Source: an uncultured Anaerolineaceae bacterium
GTDB taxonomy: Bacteria > Chloroflexota > Anaerolineae > Anaerolineales > Anaerolineaceae
Assembly (NCBI GenBank): GCA_964420835.1
Contig: CAYQUO010000001.1
Location: 19,643-83,642, forward strand
Direction: 5' to 3'
Length of the DNA stretch: 64,000 bases
The translations under genes and the position numbers were made by a program. The stretch's first letter is position 1. Every line of letters starts with the position of its first letter. A model generated the notes under the pieces. The model did no database searches and was not told the DNA's origin. It saw only the letters and a list, made by a program, of their open reading frames with translations. Positions 32,498 to 40,382 of the stretch are shown here, piece by piece.

Positions 32498-33310
32498 ATG
32501 AACAAACGTTTGTTGCTGTTGATTGCTGTTCTTGTATTTGTCACCTTGGCTTGCGATATTGGCGGTATCGGCGCCCAGGCCACTGAAACCCCGCCACCGC
32601 CACCCACGGAAGCACCCCCGCCACCTCCAACGGTGGAAGAGCCCGTAGCTGAGCCGGGCACCACGGGAGAAACCCATGTTGTCGAGGAGAGCAGCGGCTA
32701 CTTTGTGGACGAGTTCGACGGAGACCTGGAGGACTGGGAGCATTTTGTGATCGTTGGCAACCCGGATGGCAAGTACATCCGCCAGGTGGGCGGTGACCGC
32801 GTCAAGTTCGAACTGCCCAAGCAGGACACCTCGGTTTATTATGATAAGACCGGTTTCGTCATGGAGGACGTCCTTGTTGAGACTGAGGTGGAAACCGTGG
32901 GCGGTGACGACAACGGCATCATGCTCTTTTGCCGCCGCTCGGACAAGGGCTGGTATGAGATGCGGGTGCACACGGTGGGGCGGTTTGCCGGCACTTACGA
33001 GGCCTACCGGTTCGACCCCAAGTTGCGCTCGCGCAACCAGAACCCTTACGTGAACCTGTTGAAGGACATCGAGCGGATCTCCACCTACGAACTTAAATCC
33101 GGCTTCCAGGTCAACAAAATTGGACTGCTTTGCCAGGAGGACGAGATCCGCATCATGATCAACGGCGTTGAGGAGTTGCCATTGAACCGAAAGACCGACA
33201 TCATCCGCGACAGCACGCTCAAGGAAGGCACGGTGGGCCTTGGCGTCATGTCCATGGGGTGGGGCCCGGTCAATATCGAGTTCGAATCGATTTCCGCCTC
33301 TCAACCCTGA
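32498..33310 (+). CDS. lipoprotein with jelly-roll (LamG/DUF1080-like) domain, function unknown
   Basis: It has a lipobox (LLLIAVLVFVTLAC-DIGG), a Pro-rich linker and then beta-rich text ending GTVGLGVMSMGWGPVNIEFESI. Sample lines are about 48-55% GC, clearly lower than the neighbouring genes. Confidence 0.6.
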   Translation: MNKRLLLLIAVLVFVTLACDIGGIGAQATETPPPPPTEAPPPPPTVEEPVAEPGTTGETHVVEESSGYFVDEFDGDLEDWEHFVIVGNPDGKYIRQVGGDRVKFELPKQDTSVYYDKTGFVMEDVLVETEVETVGGDDNGIMLFCRRSDKGWYEMRVHTVGRFAGTYEAYRFDPKLRSRNQNPYVNLLKDIERISTYELKSGFQVNKIGLLCQEDEIRIMINGVEELPLNRKTDIIRDSTLKEGTVGLGVMSMGWGPVNIEFESISASQP

Positions 33311-33339
33311 TCCATTGCAGGCTTAACGGGCCATTCAAA

Positions 33340-33368
33340 GGCGGGCGCATTGGCGCCCGCCTTTTTTT
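33340..33368 (+). terminator. rho-independent terminator
   Basis: GGCGGGCGC-attg-GCGCCCGCC (9 bp) is followed by T7. Confidence 0.9.
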
Positions 33369-33413
33369 GCCTGTGATACAATCATCGCGTGACCTTCTCC
33401 GGGGGCTCCCAGC

Positions 33414-34595
33414 ATGCCGGTTAATTTCCAGCAGATTCAGCAGCAGGTACGGGATTATGTCGCTCGGGCGCCGCGGCGCCGGCAGGAACTGCAGCAGCGC
33501 CGCGACTTGGCCCTGCGCCAGTTTGCCCTCTACCGGGAGCGCCTGGAGGAACTGGGCCGGCTGGCCGAACAGGCAGCCGCCCGCAACGAAGCCCTGCGCA
33601 GCGCCCTGCCTGCAGCCGGACCGCTGGATGCCCGCCACCCGGCACCCCCGCCCCCGGCTGAACCCTACGTGCTGCTGGCCGCCGACGGATCGCAGGTGCA
33701 CCCCGACCGCCACGAACAGGTGGAGTTTGCCGTAATCAATGCCGGGGTGTTCCGCATCCTGCCCGGGCAGGGGCAGCCGCCCCGGGAACTGCGCGGCAGC
33801 CGGCTGCTGGTGGATGAGGAACTGCATCCCGCGGAAGGCCCGGTTACCGAGGAGGGGGTTTCACTGCTGCGCGACCTGAGCGAACGCCAGGCGCTGGCCG
33901 ACCAGGTGGAGCGGGAGGAACTGCCCGTGGTGGCCCTCACCGATGGACCGCTGGAACTGTTCCGGGAGCCCAGCCAGCGGGCGGATTATCAGCGCCATTT
34001 TCGCGAATACCTGGAGGCCCTGCACCGCCTGGCGGCTAGGAGGACAGCCCTGTGCGGCTACGTGGACCGGCCGCGCTCCGACCTGGTGGTGCGCCTGTTG
34101 GAATTGACCCTGTTGGACCCTGCCGCCCCGGACCCCGGCCGCGCCGGCCGCCCCCTGCAGCAGGTGGGCGATGCTGATCTCTTCGGCCCCCTGCTGGCGC
34201 CCGGTGAACGCTCGGCCGTGTTCGGTATCCAGTCCCTTTCCGCCCGCCATTTCCGGGCGGAACTGGCGCTGCATTTCTTCTACCTGAATGTGGGTCCGCA
34301 GGAAAACGGTCAACTGGCCCGGGTTGAAATTCCCCGCTGGGTGGCTGATGACCCGGCGCTTTTGGGCATGCTGCAGGCTGTGCTGGTGGAACAGGTGAAG
34401 CCCGCCGGCGGAAGGCCTTATCCCTACGCCCTGCACCGGGCGCACGAGGTGGCGCTGGTGGGCTTTGAGGAAAAGAACCAGTTGCGCGACCTGATCGTTC
34501 ACGAGATGCTGCGGCAGGGCATCCCTGTCCGGAGCATCTCGAGCAAACAAGGAATGAAGAACATCTCCGAAAAACGAGCGAGGTATTCAAAATGA
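33414..34595 (+). CDS. nurA: NurA-domain nuclease
   Basis: NurA-type motifs appear in order: VLLAADGSQVHP, VVALTDGPLELF, GYVDRPRSDLVVRLL and LLAPGERSAVFGIQS. Length is 393 aa. Confidence 0.7.
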   Translation: MPVNFQQIQQQVRDYVARAPRRRQELQQRRDLALRQFALYRERLEELGRLAEQAAARNEALRSALPAAGPLDARHPAPPPPAEPYVLLAADGSQVHPDRHEQVEFAVINAGVFRILPGQGQPPRELRGSRLLVDEELHPAEGPVTEEGVSLLRDLSERQALADQVEREELPVVALTDGPLELFREPSQRADYQRHFREYLEALHRLAARRTALCGYVDRPRSDLVVRLLELTLLDPAAPDPGRAGRPLQQVGDADLFGPLLAPGERSAVFGIQSLSARHFRAELALHFFYLNVGPQENGQLARVEIPRWVADDPALLGMLQAVLVEQVKPAGGRPYPYALHRAHEVALVGFEEKNQLRDLIVHEMLRQGIPVRSISSKQGMKNISEKRARYSK

Positions 34596-35206
34596 GCGTG
34601 ATCGAGATTGGCCGCCTGCTGCGCTCCGGCACTGCCGGCTGCGTAATCGGCTGCCAGGCTGACCGCCTGGAAACGCCTGCCTTTGGCGCCATGGTGCGCA
34701 TCCCCATCGGTGGCCCGCAGCCGCTGGATATTTACGGGATCATCCATGACATCCACATCGATGACGACGGGCTGGTTCGCCAATTGGTGACCGCCGGCGA
34801 TGTGCCCGAGGAACTGATCCTGGACAACCGCCTGAACCGCAACGTGCCGGTGGAGATGAGCGTGTTGTTCATCGGCCATGCCGCGGGTGGCGGCCTCCGG
34901 CACCTGCTGCCGCCGCGCCCGCCGCTGACCCTGGAGTCCATCTACCTGTGCTCACCGGCCGAGATCTGTGCCTTCACCGCAGCCGGGCGCTTTGGCTATT
35001 TCCGGCATATCCTGCGCGCCGTGGACCTGCCCACTGCCGAACTGCTGGCCGCCCACCTGCTGCAGGCCGCCCGGGCCCAGGGCTCCGCCGGCAACCCCGC
35101 CTGGGTGGCCGATGCCGAGCGCGAACTGATCACCCTGCTGCGGGATGACTACCCGACCCTGATGTCCGTGTTGGGCGCCCTGGCCGATGCCGACCTGCCC
35201 GCCTGA
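34592..35206 (+). CDS. hypothetical protein, N-terminal HAS-barrel-like region (nurA/herA-associated)
   Basis: The 204-aa ORF starts in an ATGA overlap with the nurA stop. Its N-terminal pattern (IEIGRLLRSG..VIG....L..PAFGAMVRIPI.....DIYGIIHDIHI) is collinear with the N-terminus of the downstream HerA (IGYIVGGS....ARLTL....EGSFVVIES..WRFYGLATDLQL). The functional call is inference. Confidence 0.45.
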   Translation: MSVIEIGRLLRSGTAGCVIGCQADRLETPAFGAMVRIPIGGPQPLDIYGIIHDIHIDDDGLVRQLVTAGDVPEELILDNRLNRNVPVEMSVLFIGHAAGGGLRHLLPPRPPLTLESIYLCSPAEICAFTAAGRFGYFRHILRAVDLPTAELLAAHLLQAARAQGSAGNPAWVADAERELITLLRDDYPTLMSVLGALADADLPA

Positions 35207-35227
35207 CCCCCCCAGAGGAGCAGCCCA

Positions 35228-36955
35228 ATGAACGACTTCCACGCAAATGAAAATCAAACCCCCGTGGCCGGATCCATCGGCTACATCGTTGGCGGCAGCC
35301 TGAAGGAGAACCTGCGCGCCCGCCTGACCCTGCCGCCCGAACAGGTGCAGGAGGGCAGTTTTGTGGTCATCGAGAGTGACCTGTGGAGGTTCTATGGCCT
35401 GGCGACAGACCTGCAACTGGGCGCCACCGACCCGCGCTTCGCCGACGAGCAGAGCGAGGTGCGCCTGCCGGCCAGCCTGGCCGCCCACCTGCATGGGCAA
35501 ACGCTGTTCACCACGCTGGAGATCCTGCCGGCGTTGATGCTGGAATGCGGGCCGGACCCGGCTTCTCCGGAATACGCCGCCTGGCGCCTGGAACACCCGG
35601 AGGACGACCGCCCGCGCCCAATCAAGACCATCCCGCGGCACCATGCCGCCGTACGCCTGGCCACGGAAGGCGACGTGGCCGAGATCTTCGGGCAGCCGGG
35701 GAAGGGCGGCAACTTTGCCATCGGCACCACCCGCGAGCAGGGCCACCCGGTATGCCTGGACCTGGACAGGCTGATCCTGCGCTCGGCGGGCATCTTCGGC
35801 GCCACCGGCACCGGAAAATCCTTCCTGGCGCGCCTCCTGCTGGCCGGGCTGATCCGGCACAACAAAGCCTCGGTGCTGGTCTTTGACATGCACAACGAGT
35901 ACGGCTTCGATGACCGGGCTTCGGATACCGGGCAGCAGGTGCCCGGCCTGCGAACAAAATTCCCCGCCATGGTGCGGGTGGTGGCACTGGGGCGCGGTTC
36001 CATGGTGCGCGAGGACCAGCCGGACTTCCAATTGGAGATCGCCGGCAGCGACATCCAGCCGGAGGATATTGAAATGCTCACCCGTGAACTGAACCTGAAG
36101 GAGACCACCCCGGCCACCCTGGATGCCCTGGTGACCAAATTCGGGCGGGCCGACTGGTACCGGCAATTTAAAGCCATGAAGGTGGGATCGGTGTTAAAGG
36201 ATGAAGAAAGCGGCAAGACCACCCCGGCGCCGGACAGCGTGGCCGCCTGGGCCAACGAAGCCGGGGTGAACGTGATGGCCGCCGAAGGCCTGCACAACAA
36301 ACTGGGGCGTGTGTTCCGCCTGCCGTACATCACAGACCGCCCGGCAGCCGATACACTGCAGGAGATCATCCGGCTGTTGGAGGCGGGCAACCACATCGTC
36401 CTCTCCTTTGCCAACCACGAGACGGACCTGGACTACCTGCTGGTGACCAACCTGATCACCCGGCGAATCCGCGAGGCCTGGGAGAAGAAGACCAACGAGG
36501 CGCGCAGCCGGGAGGGCGGCGAACCGCGCCAACTGGTGGTTGTGCTGGAGGAAGCCCACAAACTGCTCAACCGGGAGATGTCGCGCCAGACGGCCTTCAG
36601 CATCATCGCCCGGGAGATGCGCAAATACTTCGTCACCCTGCTGGTGATCGACCAGCGCCCCTCGCAGATCGACGACGAGGTGATGTCACAATTGGGCACA
36701 CGCATTTCGGGCTGGCTGGGGGATGACCTGGACATCCAGGCCGTGCTCTCGGGGTTGGCCGGCCGCGAGGCGCTGCGGGGCATGCTCTCGCGCCTGCAGC
36801 CCAAGGAGGAGGTGCTCCTGCTCGGCTGGGGCATGCCCATGCCGCTGCCGGTGCGCTCGCGGCGCTACGACGACCGCTTCTGGCAGGAACTGACCGGAAA
36901 GCCGGCCGCCCGGCGCAGCGCGCAGGAATTCATCGATACGATCGCCCCGCAGTGA
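35228..36955 (+). CDS. herA: HerA/DUF87 family hexameric ATPase-translocase
   Basis: It has Walker A GATGTGKS (35798-35821), Walker B VVVLEEAHKLL and an N-terminal barrel-like region. The text VTLLVIDQRPSQID is typical of HerA/FtsK-class ATPases. GAGGAG lies upstream of the ATG. Confidence 0.8.
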   Translation: MNDFHANENQTPVAGSIGYIVGGSLKENLRARLTLPPEQVQEGSFVVIESDLWRFYGLATDLQLGATDPRFADEQSEVRLPASLAAHLHGQTLFTTLEILPALMLECGPDPASPEYAAWRLEHPEDDRPRPIKTIPRHHAAVRLATEGDVAEIFGQPGKGGNFAIGTTREQGHPVCLDLDRLILRSAGIFGATGTGKSFLARLLLAGLIRHNKASVLVFDMHNEYGFDDRASDTGQQVPGLRTKFPAMVRVVALGRGSMVREDQPDFQLEIAGSDIQPEDIEMLTRELNLKETTPATLDALVTKFGRADWYRQFKAMKVGSVLKDEESGKTTPAPDSVAAWANEAGVNVMAAEGLHNKLGRVFRLPYITDRPAADTLQEIIRLLEAGNHIVLSFANHETDLDYLLVTNLITRRIREAWEKKTNEARSREGGEPRQLVVVLEEAHKLLNREMSRQTAFSIIAREMRKYFVTLLVIDQRPSQIDDEVMSQLGTRISGWLGDDLDIQAVLSGLAGREALRGMLSRLQPKEEVLLLGWGMPMPLPVRSRRYDDRFWQELTGKPAARRSAQEFIDTIAPQ

Positions 36956-36995: not shown

Positions 36996-37445
36996 TCAGG
37001 GCCAGATCAGCTTGAAGGCGATGGACGTAAGCGCCCCTAGGATCACACCGCCGACCACCTGGCGCGGGGTGTGCCCCAGTACCTCTTTTAACAACTCCTG
37101 GTAAACCTGCTGCCCTTGCAGCAGTTCGCGAAAGAGGATGTTAATGCGCTCGGCATGCATGCCCGCTTGCCGGCGCACCCCGGCCGCGTCGTGAATGACG
37201 ACCATGCTTATCGCCAGTGCCAGGGCAAAGACAGGGGTGTTGAACCCGTCGTACAGGCCTATTGCCAGGGTCATGCCGGCCATGAGGGCTGCATGCGAAC
37301 TGGGCATGCCGCCGGTATCCAGCATGACCCCCCAACGCCACTTGCCGTTGGTCAGGCGGTGAAAGGGCGCTTTGAGCAGTTGTGCCAGTGCCCAGGCGGT
37401 CAGCCCGGAGATGAGGATGCGGTAATCAGGCAGCACCAGGGGCAT
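36996..37445 (-). CDS. divergent PAP2 / DUF212 family membrane protein
   Basis: It contains GGMPSSHAALMAGMTLAIG...VVIHDAAGVRRQAG. The start is set at ATG 37445 and overlaps the end of xseB by 20 nt. Confidence 0.75.
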   Translation of the reverse strand: MPLVLPDYRILISGLTAWALAQLLKAPFHRLTNGKWRWGVMLDTGGMPSSHAALMAGMTLAIGLYDGFNTPVFALALAISMVVIHDAAGVRRQAGMHAERINILFRELLQGQQVYQELLKEVLGHTPRQVVGGVILGALTSIAFKLIWP

Positions 37446-37686
37446 CCTCCGGGCCGTTTTCCCCACGTTCTTCCCCTGCAGCCACATCCAGTTGCCTCAC
37501 GCGCAGTTCAGCCTGTTCCAGCAGTTGCCGGCAGTGACGCACCAGTGCCTGCCCGCGCTCAAACAGGGCCATGGCCTGTTCCAGCGAGGGCTGGCCGCCC
37601 TCCAGCGAGCCGACGACCCCTTCCAGTTCGCTGTAGGCTTCTTCATAGGTCATTTCTTCGACCGGTTTTGCTGCCGTTTTGGCCAT
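37426..37686 (-). CDS. xseB: exodeoxyribonuclease VII small subunit
   Basis: It reads MTYEEAYSELEGVVGSLEGGQPSLEQAMALFERGQALVRHCRQLLEQAE. Confidence 0.85.
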   Translation of the reverse strand: MAKTAAKPVEEMTYEEAYSELEGVVGSLEGGQPSLEQAMALFERGQALVRHCRQLLEQAELRVRQLDVAAGEERGENGPEDAPGAA

Positions 37687-37698
37687 GTTTCACCTCTC

Positions 37699-38928
37699 TC
37701 ACTTTTCGCCCGGCACCCGTGCCGGGAACTGCCCGTCTGCCACCCGCACCTGCAGGCTGCTGCCCGGGGGAGCCTGTTTTACGCTGCGGACGATGGCCCC
37801 ATTATCCTCCCGGCTGACCACGGCAAAGCCCCGTTGCAACACGCTCAGCGGGTCCAGCGAACCCAGGCGCAGCCCAAGCCCCTCCAGGCCGGACCGCCTC
37901 AGGCGCAGGTCCTGGCGGATGTCCCGTTCCAGGCGCATGGAGAGCATGTCGGTTTGCTGCGAGGCATCCTGCACCCGGCGCAGGGGCGAGGCGCGCAGAA
38001 GCCGCTCACCGCGGAGGCCCAGTTCATGGCTCAGCCCGTCCAGGCGGGCGCGGGTGTACTCGGCGGCCGCCGAACCCAGGGCTGCCAGGGTTGCCTTCCA
38101 CTCGGCGATATCCGGCGAGGCGGCCACGGCGGCACCGGTGGGCGTGGGGGCGCGCAGGTCGGCGGCGAAGTCGGCCAGGGTAAAGTCGGTCTCATGGCCC
38201 ACCCCGCTGATGACCGGGGCTGGAGAATTTACAACAGCCCGCACCACCTGCTCATCGTTGAAGGCCCATAGATCCTCCAGGGAACCGCCGCCGCGCCCCA
38301 GCAGGATGACATCCGGCTGTTCGCGCCGGTTAAGCGCCCGGATGGCCGCCACGATCTGGGCGGGCGCCTCGGCGCCCTGCACGGCCGCTGGCGCCAGCAC
38401 GACCTCCGCCAGCGGGTAGCGGGCGGCCAGGGTGGTCAGCATGTCGTGCAGGGCGGCGCCGGTGGCCGAGGTGACGATGCCAATGCGCTGCGGGCGCTCC
38501 GGGATGGGGCGCTTGCGTTCGGGGGCGAACAGGCCTTCGGCCTCCAGGCGGGCTTTCAGGCGCAGGAATTCCTGGTACAGGCGCCCTTCCCCCACCATGC
38601 GCACCGCGCTGACGTACAACTGGCAGGTGCCGTCACGTTCGTAAAAACTGACTGAGCCGAAAGCCTCCAGCGCCAGTCCGTTCTGCAGGTCCATGCGCAG
38701 GCGGGCGGCCTGGCTGCGCCAGACCACGCAGCGGATGGAAGCCTCGCCCTCCTTCAGGCTGAAATAGATGTGCCCCGAGGAGGGAAAGGCCAGGTTGGAG
38801 ACCTCGCCGAAGACCCAGATGTTGGCCAGGTGTGGGCTGCCCTCGATCCAGCGGTGCAGGTAGCGTGCCAGTTCGGAGACGGTGAGCGATGCGGGGAGAA
38901 AAAGGGCTTCCTGTTCCGGGGTATCCAT
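37699..38928 (-). CDS. xseA: exodeoxyribonuclease VII large subunit
   Basis: It has an OB-fold N-terminus (LTVSELARYL...IWVFGEVSN) and catalytic-region text (IGIVTSATGAALHD, RGGGSLEDLWAFNDE, ISGVGHETDFTLADF). The ATG at 38928 directly abuts the upstream stop. Confidence 0.9.
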   Translation of the reverse strand: MDTPEQEALFLPASLTVSELARYLHRWIEGSPHLANIWVFGEVSNLAFPSSGHIYFSLKEGEASIRCVVWRSQAARLRMDLQNGLALEAFGSVSFYERDGTCQLYVSAVRMVGEGRLYQEFLRLKARLEAEGLFAPERKRPIPERPQRIGIVTSATGAALHDMLTTLAARYPLAEVVLAPAAVQGAEAPAQIVAAIRALNRREQPDVILLGRGGGSLEDLWAFNDEQVVRAVVNSPAPVISGVGHETDFTLADFAADLRAPTPTGAAVAASPDIAEWKATLAALGSAAAEYTRARLDGLSHELGLRGERLLRASPLRRVQDASQQTDMLSMRLERDIRQDLRLRRSGLEGLGLRLGSLDPLSVLQRGFAVVSREDNGAIVRSVKQAPPGSSLQVRVADGQFPARVPGEK

Positions 38929-38930
38929 TC

Positions 38931-40382
38931 CTAAATGAACTTGAGGCGGCGGGCGGCGAAGACGACCATTTTGAGCAGCAGCCAACCATGGCGCCAGCGC
39001 TGGATGTTGGTGGTGCCGTAGGTGCGCTCGCGGTAGCGGATGGGCAGGTCGATGATCTTGTGGTTCAGGCGGGCGGCGCCAAAGAGCAGGTCGTAATCGC
39101 CGAAGGGGTCAAAGTCACCAAAATAGGAGCGGTTGGCGGCGATCTTGCGGTAGTCGCTCTTCCAGAGCACCTTGGTGCCGCACAGGGTATCCTTGACCGG
39201 CTGGCCGAGCAGCCAGGAGAAGATGAGGCTGAAGGACTTGTTGCCCAAAAGGTTGAAGAAGCGCATGGCCTGCTTTTCCATCGGGTAGACCAGGCGCACA
39301 CCGTTGATAAAATCACCCCTGCCTTCCACCAGGGCCTGGTAAAAGCGGGGCAGGTCCTCCGGCGGAACGGTCAGGTCGGCATCGAGGATCATCAACACCT
39401 CGCCGCTGGCCGCCTCGAACCCGGCACGCACGGCGTCGCCCTTGCCCTGGCCCGGTTGCCGGAGCAGGATGGCTGGCTGTTTTTTTCGACGGGCCATCTC
39501 CGCTTCGATCGCCTTAAAAGTGCGGTCCCGCGAGTGACCTTCAACAAAGACCAGTTCGGTGCCGGAGCCCATCTGCGGCAGGCGTTCAAAGATCGCCGGG
39601 ATGTTGCCCTCCTCGTTGCGCGCCGGAACGATGACCGAGACGCGGGGTTTATTGCCGGCCGGTGGGTTGGCCGGGCGGGGGCGGGCGAGGATGAAATTGG
39701 ACAGCGCCAGGTGGCGGAAGGGCCACAGGCGGACGAGAAAGCGGTCACAAAGGGGCGCCAGCAGCGGGATATCCAGCGGGCAGAGGACCTCCTCCCAATG
39801 GCGGATCGCCTCGCAGCCGGCCAGGTCGAGCAAATTAACCGTATCCTCCACGGTCAGCCAGTTCTGCTCCAGGTTGGGGATGGCCAGTTCCATCCAGCGG
39901 GCGAAATCCAGCGGCAGTTCCCAAAAGCGGCTGTGATTGTTGATGATGATGCGCGTGGAAGGGAGGCACAGGGGCTTCAGCCGTTCCAGGACCGCCTGCA
40001 CATCCCACAGGTCGTTGAGGACATCCGAGAGGATGATGAAGTCGAAGGTCTCTTTTAATTCAAGGCTGTGCAGGTCCGCCTGGATGAGGGTGAGTTCCGG
40101 GTGGCGCGAGCGGGCCAGGGAGAGCATGGCCGGCGAGAAATCCACCCCCACGCCTGGTGAGGGCTGCAGGCTGGCCAGCAGGTCCCCGCTGCCGCAGCCG
40201 AGCTCCAGCACCCGCGAACCGGCAGGCACCAGCGAGCGGTAAACAGCCGCCAGGCGCCGGTGGTAATGGCCGTTCAGGCCCTTCCATCCCGCCAGCAGGG
40301 CGGCAACGCCCTCCCAGTGGGCCAGGCGTTCCTGGCAGTAGGCCGCATACCCGGGGTCCGCCGGCCGGGGTTTTTGCTTCAT
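38931..40382 (-). CDS. fusion protein: class I SAM methyltransferase + GT2 glycosyltransferase
   Basis: The N-terminus carries methyltransferase motif I (VLELGCGSGDL). The C-terminal part is GT2 (VSVIVPARNEEGNI, LMILDADLTVP). I prefer the ATG at 40382. Confidence 0.75.
   Translation of the reverse strand: MKQKPRPADPGYAAYCQERLAHWEGVAALLAGWKGLNGHYHRRLAAVYRSLVPAGSRVLELGCGSGDLLASLQPSPGVGVDFSPAMLSLARSRHPELTLIQADLHSLELKETFDFIILSDVLNDLWDVQAVLERLKPLCLPSTRIIINNHSRFWELPLDFARWMELAIPNLEQNWLTVEDTVNLLDLAGCEAIRHWEEVLCPLDIPLLAPLCDRFLVRLWPFRHLALSNFILARPRPANPPAGNKPRVSVIVPARNEEGNIPAIFERLPQMGSGTELVFVEGHSRDRTFKAIEAEMARRKKQPAILLRQPGQGKGDAVRAGFEAASGEVLMILDADLTVPPEDLPRFYQALVEGRGDFINGVRLVYPMEKQAMRFFNLLGNKSFSLIFSWLLGQPVKDTLCGTKVLWKSDYRKIAANRSYFGDFDPFGDYDLLFGAARLNHKIIDLPIRYRERTYGTTNIQRWRHGWLLLKMVVFAARRLKFI

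Follow-up and report, generated by a model that had tools for sequence, protein, structure and literature searches.

A conserved protein with a predicted HAS-barrel, encoded between nurA and herA in an Anaerolineaceae bacterium, as a candidate third component of a NurA-HerA system

The nurA-Mid-herA cluster

The nuclease NurA and the hexameric translocase HerA are encoded together in archaea and in some bacteria, and the pair serves as a model for a ring translocase that feeds DNA to a nuclease. Here we describe a cluster of three genes in which a further gene lies between the two. It is found in a stretch of 64,000 nucleotides from an uncultured Anaerolineaceae bacterium of the phylum Chloroflexota (assembly GCA_964420835.1, contig CAYQUO010000001.1, positions 19,643 to 83,642), referred to below as the window. 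The three open reading frames (ORFs) are all on the + strand and are tightly clustered: nurA (33414-34595, 393 amino acids), the middle ORF (34592-35206, 204 amino acids), whose product is called Mid here, and herA (35228-36955, 575 amino acids). The ATG of Mid (34592-34594) overlaps the TGA of nurA (34593-34595), giving the sequence ATGA. The TGA of Mid (35204-35206) is separated from the ATG of herA (35228) by a spacer of 21 nt, which holds a GAGGAG Shine-Dalgarno sequence (35215-35220, + strand) 7 nt 5′ of that ATG. This is the arrangement given in an initial annotation of the window, which was made from the DNA letters without database searches, and it was unchanged when the coordinates were re-read.

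The first ORF encodes a NurA nuclease. It matches the Pfam NurA family (PF09376) over residues 87-347 with 73.2 bits against a cut-off of 21 (E 3e-20). The match spans positions 3-252 of the 254 in the profile, and NurA here is full length. The motifs AADGSQ, ALTDGPLE and GERSAVF, from which the initial annotation had identified the nuclease, can be read directly in the ORF; the first two are its acidic motifs. Residues 1-86 (33414-33671), which lie outside the Pfam domain, form a helix-rich basic extension with an isoelectric point (pI) of 10.6, and are a candidate partner-binding or DNA-binding arm. The NurA of one divergent relative (locus L093, see below) likewise has about 78 residues ahead of its NurA domain. 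A phmmer search of PDB sequences with the NurA of the window found no solved NurA at E ≤ 0.1.

The third ORF encodes HerA. The central domain of HerA (DUF87) is matched in Pfam with 101.3 bits against a cut-off of 23.2, and the Walker A (GATGTGKS) and Walker B (VVVLEEAH) motifs on which the identification originally rested are both present when the ORF is read directly. An N-terminal barrel had also been assigned to this protein. Residues 17-79 match the Pfam HAS-barrel family (PF09378; HAS stands for HerA-ATP Synthase) with 21.0 bits, which is below the cut-off of 25.2, while the HerA proteins at the same position in related operons, which are 38-39% identical, pass it, with 35.6 bits at locus L087 and 38.7 bits at L093. 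HerA is therefore predicted to keep a HAS-barrel of its own, both in the window and in the related operons. The NCBIfam equivalog models for HerA, comprising the repair HerA models NF040937 and NF040819 and the anti-phage HerA models NF042943 and NF042944, were not reached: their cut-offs are 800-970, and the best scores were 78 and 68 bits. The HerA of the window lies far below these cut-offs and is best placed in a separate HerA subfamily. A phmmer search started from it reaches Sir2-HerA, which is the best sequence match, and SsoHerA, and did not find the HerA of Deinococcus radiodurans (DrHerA) at E ≤ 1e-3. The only PADLOC models that match are generic HerA models, and they match on this ORF.

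Upstream of nurA there is an intrinsic-terminator-like hairpin with a run of T residues (33337-33371, + strand). The hairpin itself occupies 33337-33364 and has a stem of 12 bp, nine of which are G-C pairs, and a loop of 4 nt. The initial annotation had described a strong terminator upstream of the operon, and it was also found in the terminator scan. It is predicted to terminate the upstream gene (32498-33310) and to insulate the nurA-Mid-herA operon. The same annotation proposed an extended −10 element, TGaTACAAT. The sequence is present at 33374-33382 on the + strand, where it is a candidate for this role, but the promoter scan calls no full sigma-70 −35/−10 promoter at this site, and a recognisable −35 was not found.

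Conservation and predicted fold of Mid

Mid is a genuine gene under constraint. A search of 5.8 billion proteins gave 6004 homologs at E ≤ 1e-3, and 1.84 billion representatives, searched exhaustively with a profile, gave 564 clusters at 50% identity. The top 120 homologs are about 200 amino acids long and 59-100% identical to Mid, all but three of them falling at 59-71%; where a name is given, it is 'hypothetical protein', and the sources of the named entries are Anaerolineae or Chloroflexota. An alignment of 31 sequences contains 59 invariant columns, including DIHIDDDGLVRQL, LLPPRPPL, GRFGYFRH and LLRDDYPTL. In the sampled genomes, relatives of the window proteins have identities of 57-69% for Mid, 38-54% for NurA and 63-73% for HerA, and Mid is therefore more constrained than the adjacent nuclease. 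Every locus examined has it as an ORF of its own, about 200 amino acids long.

The structure of Mid was predicted with AlphaFold2 using the family alignment, with a mean predicted local distance difference test (pLDDT) of 83.9 and a predicted template modelling score (pTM) of 0.80. The model consists of a β-barrel formed by residues ~1-120, with a helical insert of low confidence at residues 59-82, followed by five helices at residues 122-199. When the model was compared with the PDB using Foldseek, the 50 best matches listed were all HerA chains, with a probability of 1.0, E values down to 6e-5 and a root-mean-square deviation of 2.6 Å over ~130 columns, a span close to that of the barrel. 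The chains matched come from DUF4297-HerA, TdpA, Sir2-HerA, Thermococcus kodakarensis HerA-NurA, D. radiodurans HerA and Sulfolobus solfataricus HerA. Against viral structures, Foldseek found nothing at E ≤ 0.001. Of 68 diverse members of the Mid family, 20 match the HAS-barrel family PF09378 (best E 6.9e-5), and no other Pfam family was matched more than once among them. A HAS-barrel-like pattern had been noticed in the middle ORF by the initial annotation, and both the structural and the family matches agree with it: the searches place the N-terminal half in the HerA HAS-barrel fold and not in an unrelated, characterised family. Other comparisons were silent. BLASTP of Mid against the HerA of the window gave nothing significant, sequence-profile searches of the PDB with two Mid alignments (A1 and A2) gave no meaningful match, and the Mid of the window has no match in NCBIfam, PADLOC or PHROGs.

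The N-terminal β-barrel crown of the α and β subunits of F1-ATPase belongs to the same class of small barrels. It acts as a ring-stabilizing collar, and it is the other half of the HerA-ATP Synthase name. No ATP-synthase chain occurs among the 50 Foldseek matches listed, and it is the HerA version that Mid resembles.

Mid is not a HerA ATPase. It has neither Walker motifs nor a match to DUF87, and its C-terminal half is a bundle of five helices, in keeping with the helical tail described in the initial annotation. This C-terminal domain (residues ~121-204, 34952-35203 on the + strand) carries the conserved sequence FTxxGRFGYFRH...LLRDDYPTL. It was also modelled alone, giving a pLDDT of 92.9, and Foldseek comparison of this separate model with solved structures gave generic helical-repeat matches only (best E 3.2). 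As modelled, Mid combines a free-standing HAS-barrel of the HerA type with a helical domain specific to the family, and lacks the ATPase.

The barrel of Mid contains an acidic insert, visible in both the alignment and the model, at residues 53-90 (34748-34861, + strand), with the sequence DIHIDDDGLVRQL...DNRxNRNxPxE. In the 31-sequence alignment this segment is highly conserved, and no other element of Mid is conserved more strongly; it has a pI of 4.1 and a charge of −6, and contains an invariant DDD at residues 57-59. D59 is kept in 61 of the 68 diverse members. This insert may be where a partner binds.

Gene neighbourhoods of Mid

A scan at species level, using one genome per species, gave at least 396 Mid loci, of which 80 were retained for analysis of synteny. 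In 78 of the 80 genomes, nurA is directly upstream of Mid. At the junction between the two genes, 47 of 85 loci show a 4-nt overlap, and in 9 more the genes overlap by 1 or 8 nt. The position of herA is more variable: it is adjacent to Mid (less than 100 nt) in 40 of the 80 loci, and in another 24 it lies 0.1-5 kb away on the same strand, often past one small inserted gene. With the 6 loci that could not be scored left aside, herA is found within 5 kb downstream of Mid in 64 of 74. It is concluded from these counts that, within the Anaerolineae, Mid tracks nurA more faithfully than it tracks herA. Gaps of 0.35-1.1 kb between Mid and herA, with one small gene inserted, were seen in about 20 other loci and in Longilinea arvoryzae (L001:6654-7088), where the inserted gene encodes a four-helix bundle protein of family PF05635, the '23S rRNA-intervening-sequence protein'.

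Divergent relatives of Mid, with identities of only 25-40%, are found in several arrangements. Two loci (L085 and L093) have the full order NurA-Mid-HerA, and one (L089) has NurA-Mid followed by the end of the contig. In three more (L086, L087 and L092) the order is Mid-HerA: the two genes overlap by 4 nt or are at most 36 nt apart, and the gene immediately upstream is not nurA. At L088 both partners are missing. The NurA-Mid-HerA and Mid-HerA arrangements in divergent lineages link Mid to both enzymes across deep divergence. A middle ORF conserved at nurA-herA loci, as the initial annotation had supposed, is thus a feature of the 80 Anaerolineae-type genomes and also of the divergent loci L085 and L093. 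At L092 (L092:7591-9334, on a long-read contig), herA is split by a frameshift into ORFs of 432 and 165 amino acids, and tblastn gives two high-scoring segment pairs, over HerA residues 17-340 and 339-564. The split probably reflects misassembly rather than a pseudogene.

Two fragmentary metagenomic proteins (P0144 and P0243) run from the C-terminus of NurA into the N-terminus of Mid in one frame. They are either rare true fusions or frameshift artefacts, and since they come from short contigs they were set aside as Rosetta-stone evidence.

A search seeded with divergent members of the family reaches cyanobacterial proteins of about 215 amino acids, which have precomputed PF09378 hits above the Pfam threshold. 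Their homology to Mid extends over the full length (hhalign 99.65%, E 5e-25, 191 columns), and two of them are named 'HAS-barrel domain-containing protein' by NCBI. The example from Leptolyngbya (MEB3268597.1) has the motifs LPPRPP, FTxxLDFLR and LLKDDYDRL in common with Mid. Its name is an automatic domain annotation, and a functional study of it was not found. In a comparison of reduced cyanobacterial genomes, the genes specific to UCYN-A1 include a 'HAS barrel domain protein' and a 'NurA domain-containing protein' (PMC12234771). This hints at co-retention of the two, and is ambiguous since the family of the 'HAS barrel domain protein' is unconfirmed.

Comparison with known systems and possible roles of Mid

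NurA and HerA are known families, and the enzymology of the window system is of a known kind. In D. radiodurans (DR_0836/DR_0837; PDB 7WRW and 7WRX), as here, a NurA-domain nuclease is encoded together with a HerA hexameric translocase. The two systems share a chromosomal, housekeeping-type context. The N-terminal HAS-barrel of HerA is the docking face for NurA in D. radiodurans, and the predicted barrel of the window HerA would be so here. They differ in that the D. radiodurans complex has two components, HerA6:NurA2 (PMC9960219), whereas the operon in the window has a third conserved gene between the other two. This stoichiometry is described for the published bacterial and archaeal complexes alike (PMC9960219). 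The window enzymes are also remote from the D. radiodurans pair, as the phmmer searches above indicate.

The archaeal HerA-NurA systems (Sulfolobus, PDB 4D2I; Thermococcus, 9X1M), which work with Mre11-Rad50, use the same two enzyme families, and their HAS-barrel collar matches the Mid model in fold. The archaeal operon includes mre11 and rad50, whereas the cluster in the window has neither, its neighbours being a PAP2-like gene, xseB/xseA and glycosyltransferases. A stand-alone HAS-barrel subunit has not been reported for the archaeal operons. The anti-phage systems Sir2-HerA, DUF4297-HerA and TdpAB supply the HerA chains that match the Mid barrel best in Foldseek. These systems pair an effector with a HerA ATPase, as NurA and HerA are paired here. 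The effector in the window is however NurA, and not Sir2, DUF4297 or TdpB, the context is conserved and of the housekeeping kind, and nothing in those two-gene systems corresponds to Mid.

The searchable literature, whose coverage does not extend to the comparative genomics of Iyer et al. (2004), yielded neither an account of a third subunit with a HAS-barrel nor anything about NurA-HerA in Chloroflexota. The link of the Mid family to NurA-HerA thus appears to be undescribed, although its cyanobacterial members have been labelled automatically by domain.

In the characterised systems, HAS-barrels form an inter-subunit collar on the HerA hexamer, and this collar is the docking surface for the NurA dimer (PMC9960219). 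The contact in D. radiodurans is ionic, with residues D78, E80 and D81 of the HerA barrel facing basic motifs of NurA, and the triple mutant of HerA at these positions abolishes the complex with NurA (PMC9960219). Mid is a free copy of such a collar domain, with an acidic insert containing DDD, and is encoded next to a NurA with a basic extension. We therefore propose that Mid may bind to NurA or to the collar of HerA. We consider it reasonably probable that Mid is a non-enzymatic third component of a Chloroflexota-type NurA-HerA system for DNA-end processing, serving as an adaptor, assembly factor or gate. Translational coupling of nurA and Mid predicts co-synthesis, so that Mid would be made in step with NurA. 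It would then bind NurA, slot onto the HerA collar, or both, using HAS-barrel-type contacts, as expected from the use of the collar as the dock for NurA in known systems. As an adaptor, assembly factor or gate, it would set when the nuclease couples to the translocase. The analysis shows that the gene is real, and it shows its fold, synteny and conservation; a physical interaction, its stoichiometry and the sense of its effect, activation or restraint, are inferred.

A number of observations weigh against this reading. The Mid of the window has no match in Pfam, at a threshold as permissive as E ≤ 1. A profile comparison of Mid with the HerA of its own clade is weak (hhalign P=0.005, 20 columns), and pairs residues 32-54 of Mid with residues 43-62 of HerA, so that the central strand alone (G.fV.I...YGL..D) is aligned. 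This is the same strand whose pattern had been spotted by eye in the initial annotation. Confidence in the model is lowest at the acidic insert, residues 53-90 (pLDDT 47-69), as would be expected if the segment becomes ordered only upon binding. The DDD of the insert could not be mapped onto D78/E80/D81 of DrHerA, and the N-terminus of the window HerA aligned to no PDB sequence. The gene neighbourhoods are also not uniform: in 10 of the 74 scorable Anaerolineae-type loci there is no herA within 3 kb or more downstream, and one of these is on a complete chromosome of 4.9 Mb, where nurA-Mid is followed by unrelated genes. One distant homolog, at locus L088, has neither nurA nor herA in its operon. 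Finally, the cyanobacterial homologs are not adjacent to nurA or herA (L090 and L091). They are encoded alone amid unrelated housekeeping genes, in the orders infB-X-ubiA and ndhS-X-alaS, where X is the homolog of Mid (L090:4703-5359 and L091:6001-6663).

The L088 locus may represent a different system that reuses a free HAS-barrel protein. The homolog there (P0231; L088:6001-10651, Logan SRR31893901_53808) heads four overlapping ORFs of 278, 450, 350 and 265 amino acids. The run has no significant Pfam match, and a SNF2-like helicase of 998 amino acids is encoded about 700 nt upstream.

If Mid does act as a third component, a conserved and translationally coupled copy of the HerA docking collar suggests a layer of control or assembly that is missing from the two-component models. 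It would also give a proposed function and set of partners to an orphan family that numbers over 6000 sequences, among which are widespread cyanobacterial proteins. Experimental handles on Mid are provided by its invariant motifs DDD, LPPRPP and LLRDDYP, and Cyanobacteria, the phylum of some members, include model strains that are open to genetics. The role of bacterial NurA-HerA is still disputed: after deletion in Deinococcus and Thermus, DNA-damage resistance is no more than modest, or is even improved (PMC9960219).

The proposal can be taken further, although we regard the following version as tentative and rather unlikely. Mid might be the first trans-acting HAS-barrel subunit, that is, a detachable copy of the HerA collar. 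It could assemble into a separate ring, placed between the hexamer of HerA and the dimer of NurA, or sit as a mimic on the HerA-docking surface of NurA, and in this way license or restrain their coupling. The cyanobacterial orphans could then be the same regulator acting on unlinked nurA and herA. Were this true, there would be a three-component NurA-HerA machine conserved over Chloroflexota and Cyanobacteria.

The evidence from synteny bears on a different possibility, namely that Mid acts mainly on HerA, by co-assembling with the ring, nucleating it or capping it (as a loader, ring-opener or stoichiometry controller), and that its coupling to nurA is simply operon economy. HAS-barrels form the collar between the subunits of HerA hexamers (PMC9960219), and the three Mid-HerA loci L086, L087 and L092, with their overlaps or short spacers and no nurA immediately upstream, fit this idea. 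In the Anaerolineae, however, nurA is the constant neighbour (78 of 80), while 34 of 74 loci have herA further off or lack it in the vicinity, and L089 shows NurA-Mid. HerA moreover has its own barrel, and there is no obvious need for one in trans. We consider an action mainly on HerA improbable.

It is slightly less probable again that Mid has a separate function, for example as a small oligomeric barrel that binds DNA or protein in some other pathway, and is a mere conserved neighbour in Chloroflexota. The solitary cyanobacterial genes and the different operon at L088 would be explained in this way, and no relative in fold is known that would connect the C-terminal domain with DNA repair. 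Against this, the start/stop overlaps with nurA or herA persist among lineages in which Mid is just 25-40% identical, and the sole fold relatives of Mid, among the 50 best Foldseek matches listed, are HerA proteins. The pair of UCYN-A1 genes also speaks against a separate function, ambiguous as it is.

A further reading is phage defence, a role that the initial annotation had left open for the operon. The three genes would then form an anti-phage system, with HerA, NurA as effector, and Mid as sensor or regulator. Sir2-HerA, DUF4297-HerA and TdpAB do use HerA ATPases and are among the best fold and sequence matches, and in Longilinea a Gabija-like pair of OLD-nuclease and UvrD genes lies about 1.4 kb upstream of nurA. 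We nevertheless think a defence system very improbable. The operon occurs at the at least 396 species-level genome loci with high identity, and its flanks are variable and mostly housekeeping. There is no Sir2 or DUF4297 effector beside it, PADLOC matches nothing on NurA or Mid and only generic models on HerA, and tblastn of Mid against 72,556 plasmids and 50,697 phage records gave no match. The broad distribution at high identity across species makes inheritance look vertical. The most likely role in the cell is the repair or maintenance of chromosomal DNA, and not phage defence.

The Longilinea arvoryzae genes (L001:1-3393) encode an OLD-family ATPase/TOPRIM nuclease and, after it, a UvrD-type helicase. 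They are absent from the window and from the other annotated upstream flank (L002).

That Mid is a remnant, either an N-terminus split from herA by a frameshift or else the tail of nurA, is scarcely credible and was rejected: its fold is that of the HerA N-terminus, and Mid and herA share a reading frame (both starts, 34592 and 35228, are 2 mod 3), but HerA is full length with its own predicted HAS-barrel, NurA is likewise full length, and Mid has an extra helical domain of 85 residues that HerA lacks, is a separate ORF wherever it was examined, is a solitary gene in Cyanobacteria and is more conserved than NurA, so that the middle ORF is not the split-off fragment that the initial annotation had considered as an alternative.

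In the window, the operon is flanked by glycosyltransferases, a PAP2-like gene and the exonuclease VII genes xseB and xseA. The latter are on the − strand at 37426-38985, about 0.5 kb 3′ of herA and on the opposite strand to it, and place a second DNA-end nuclease nearby.

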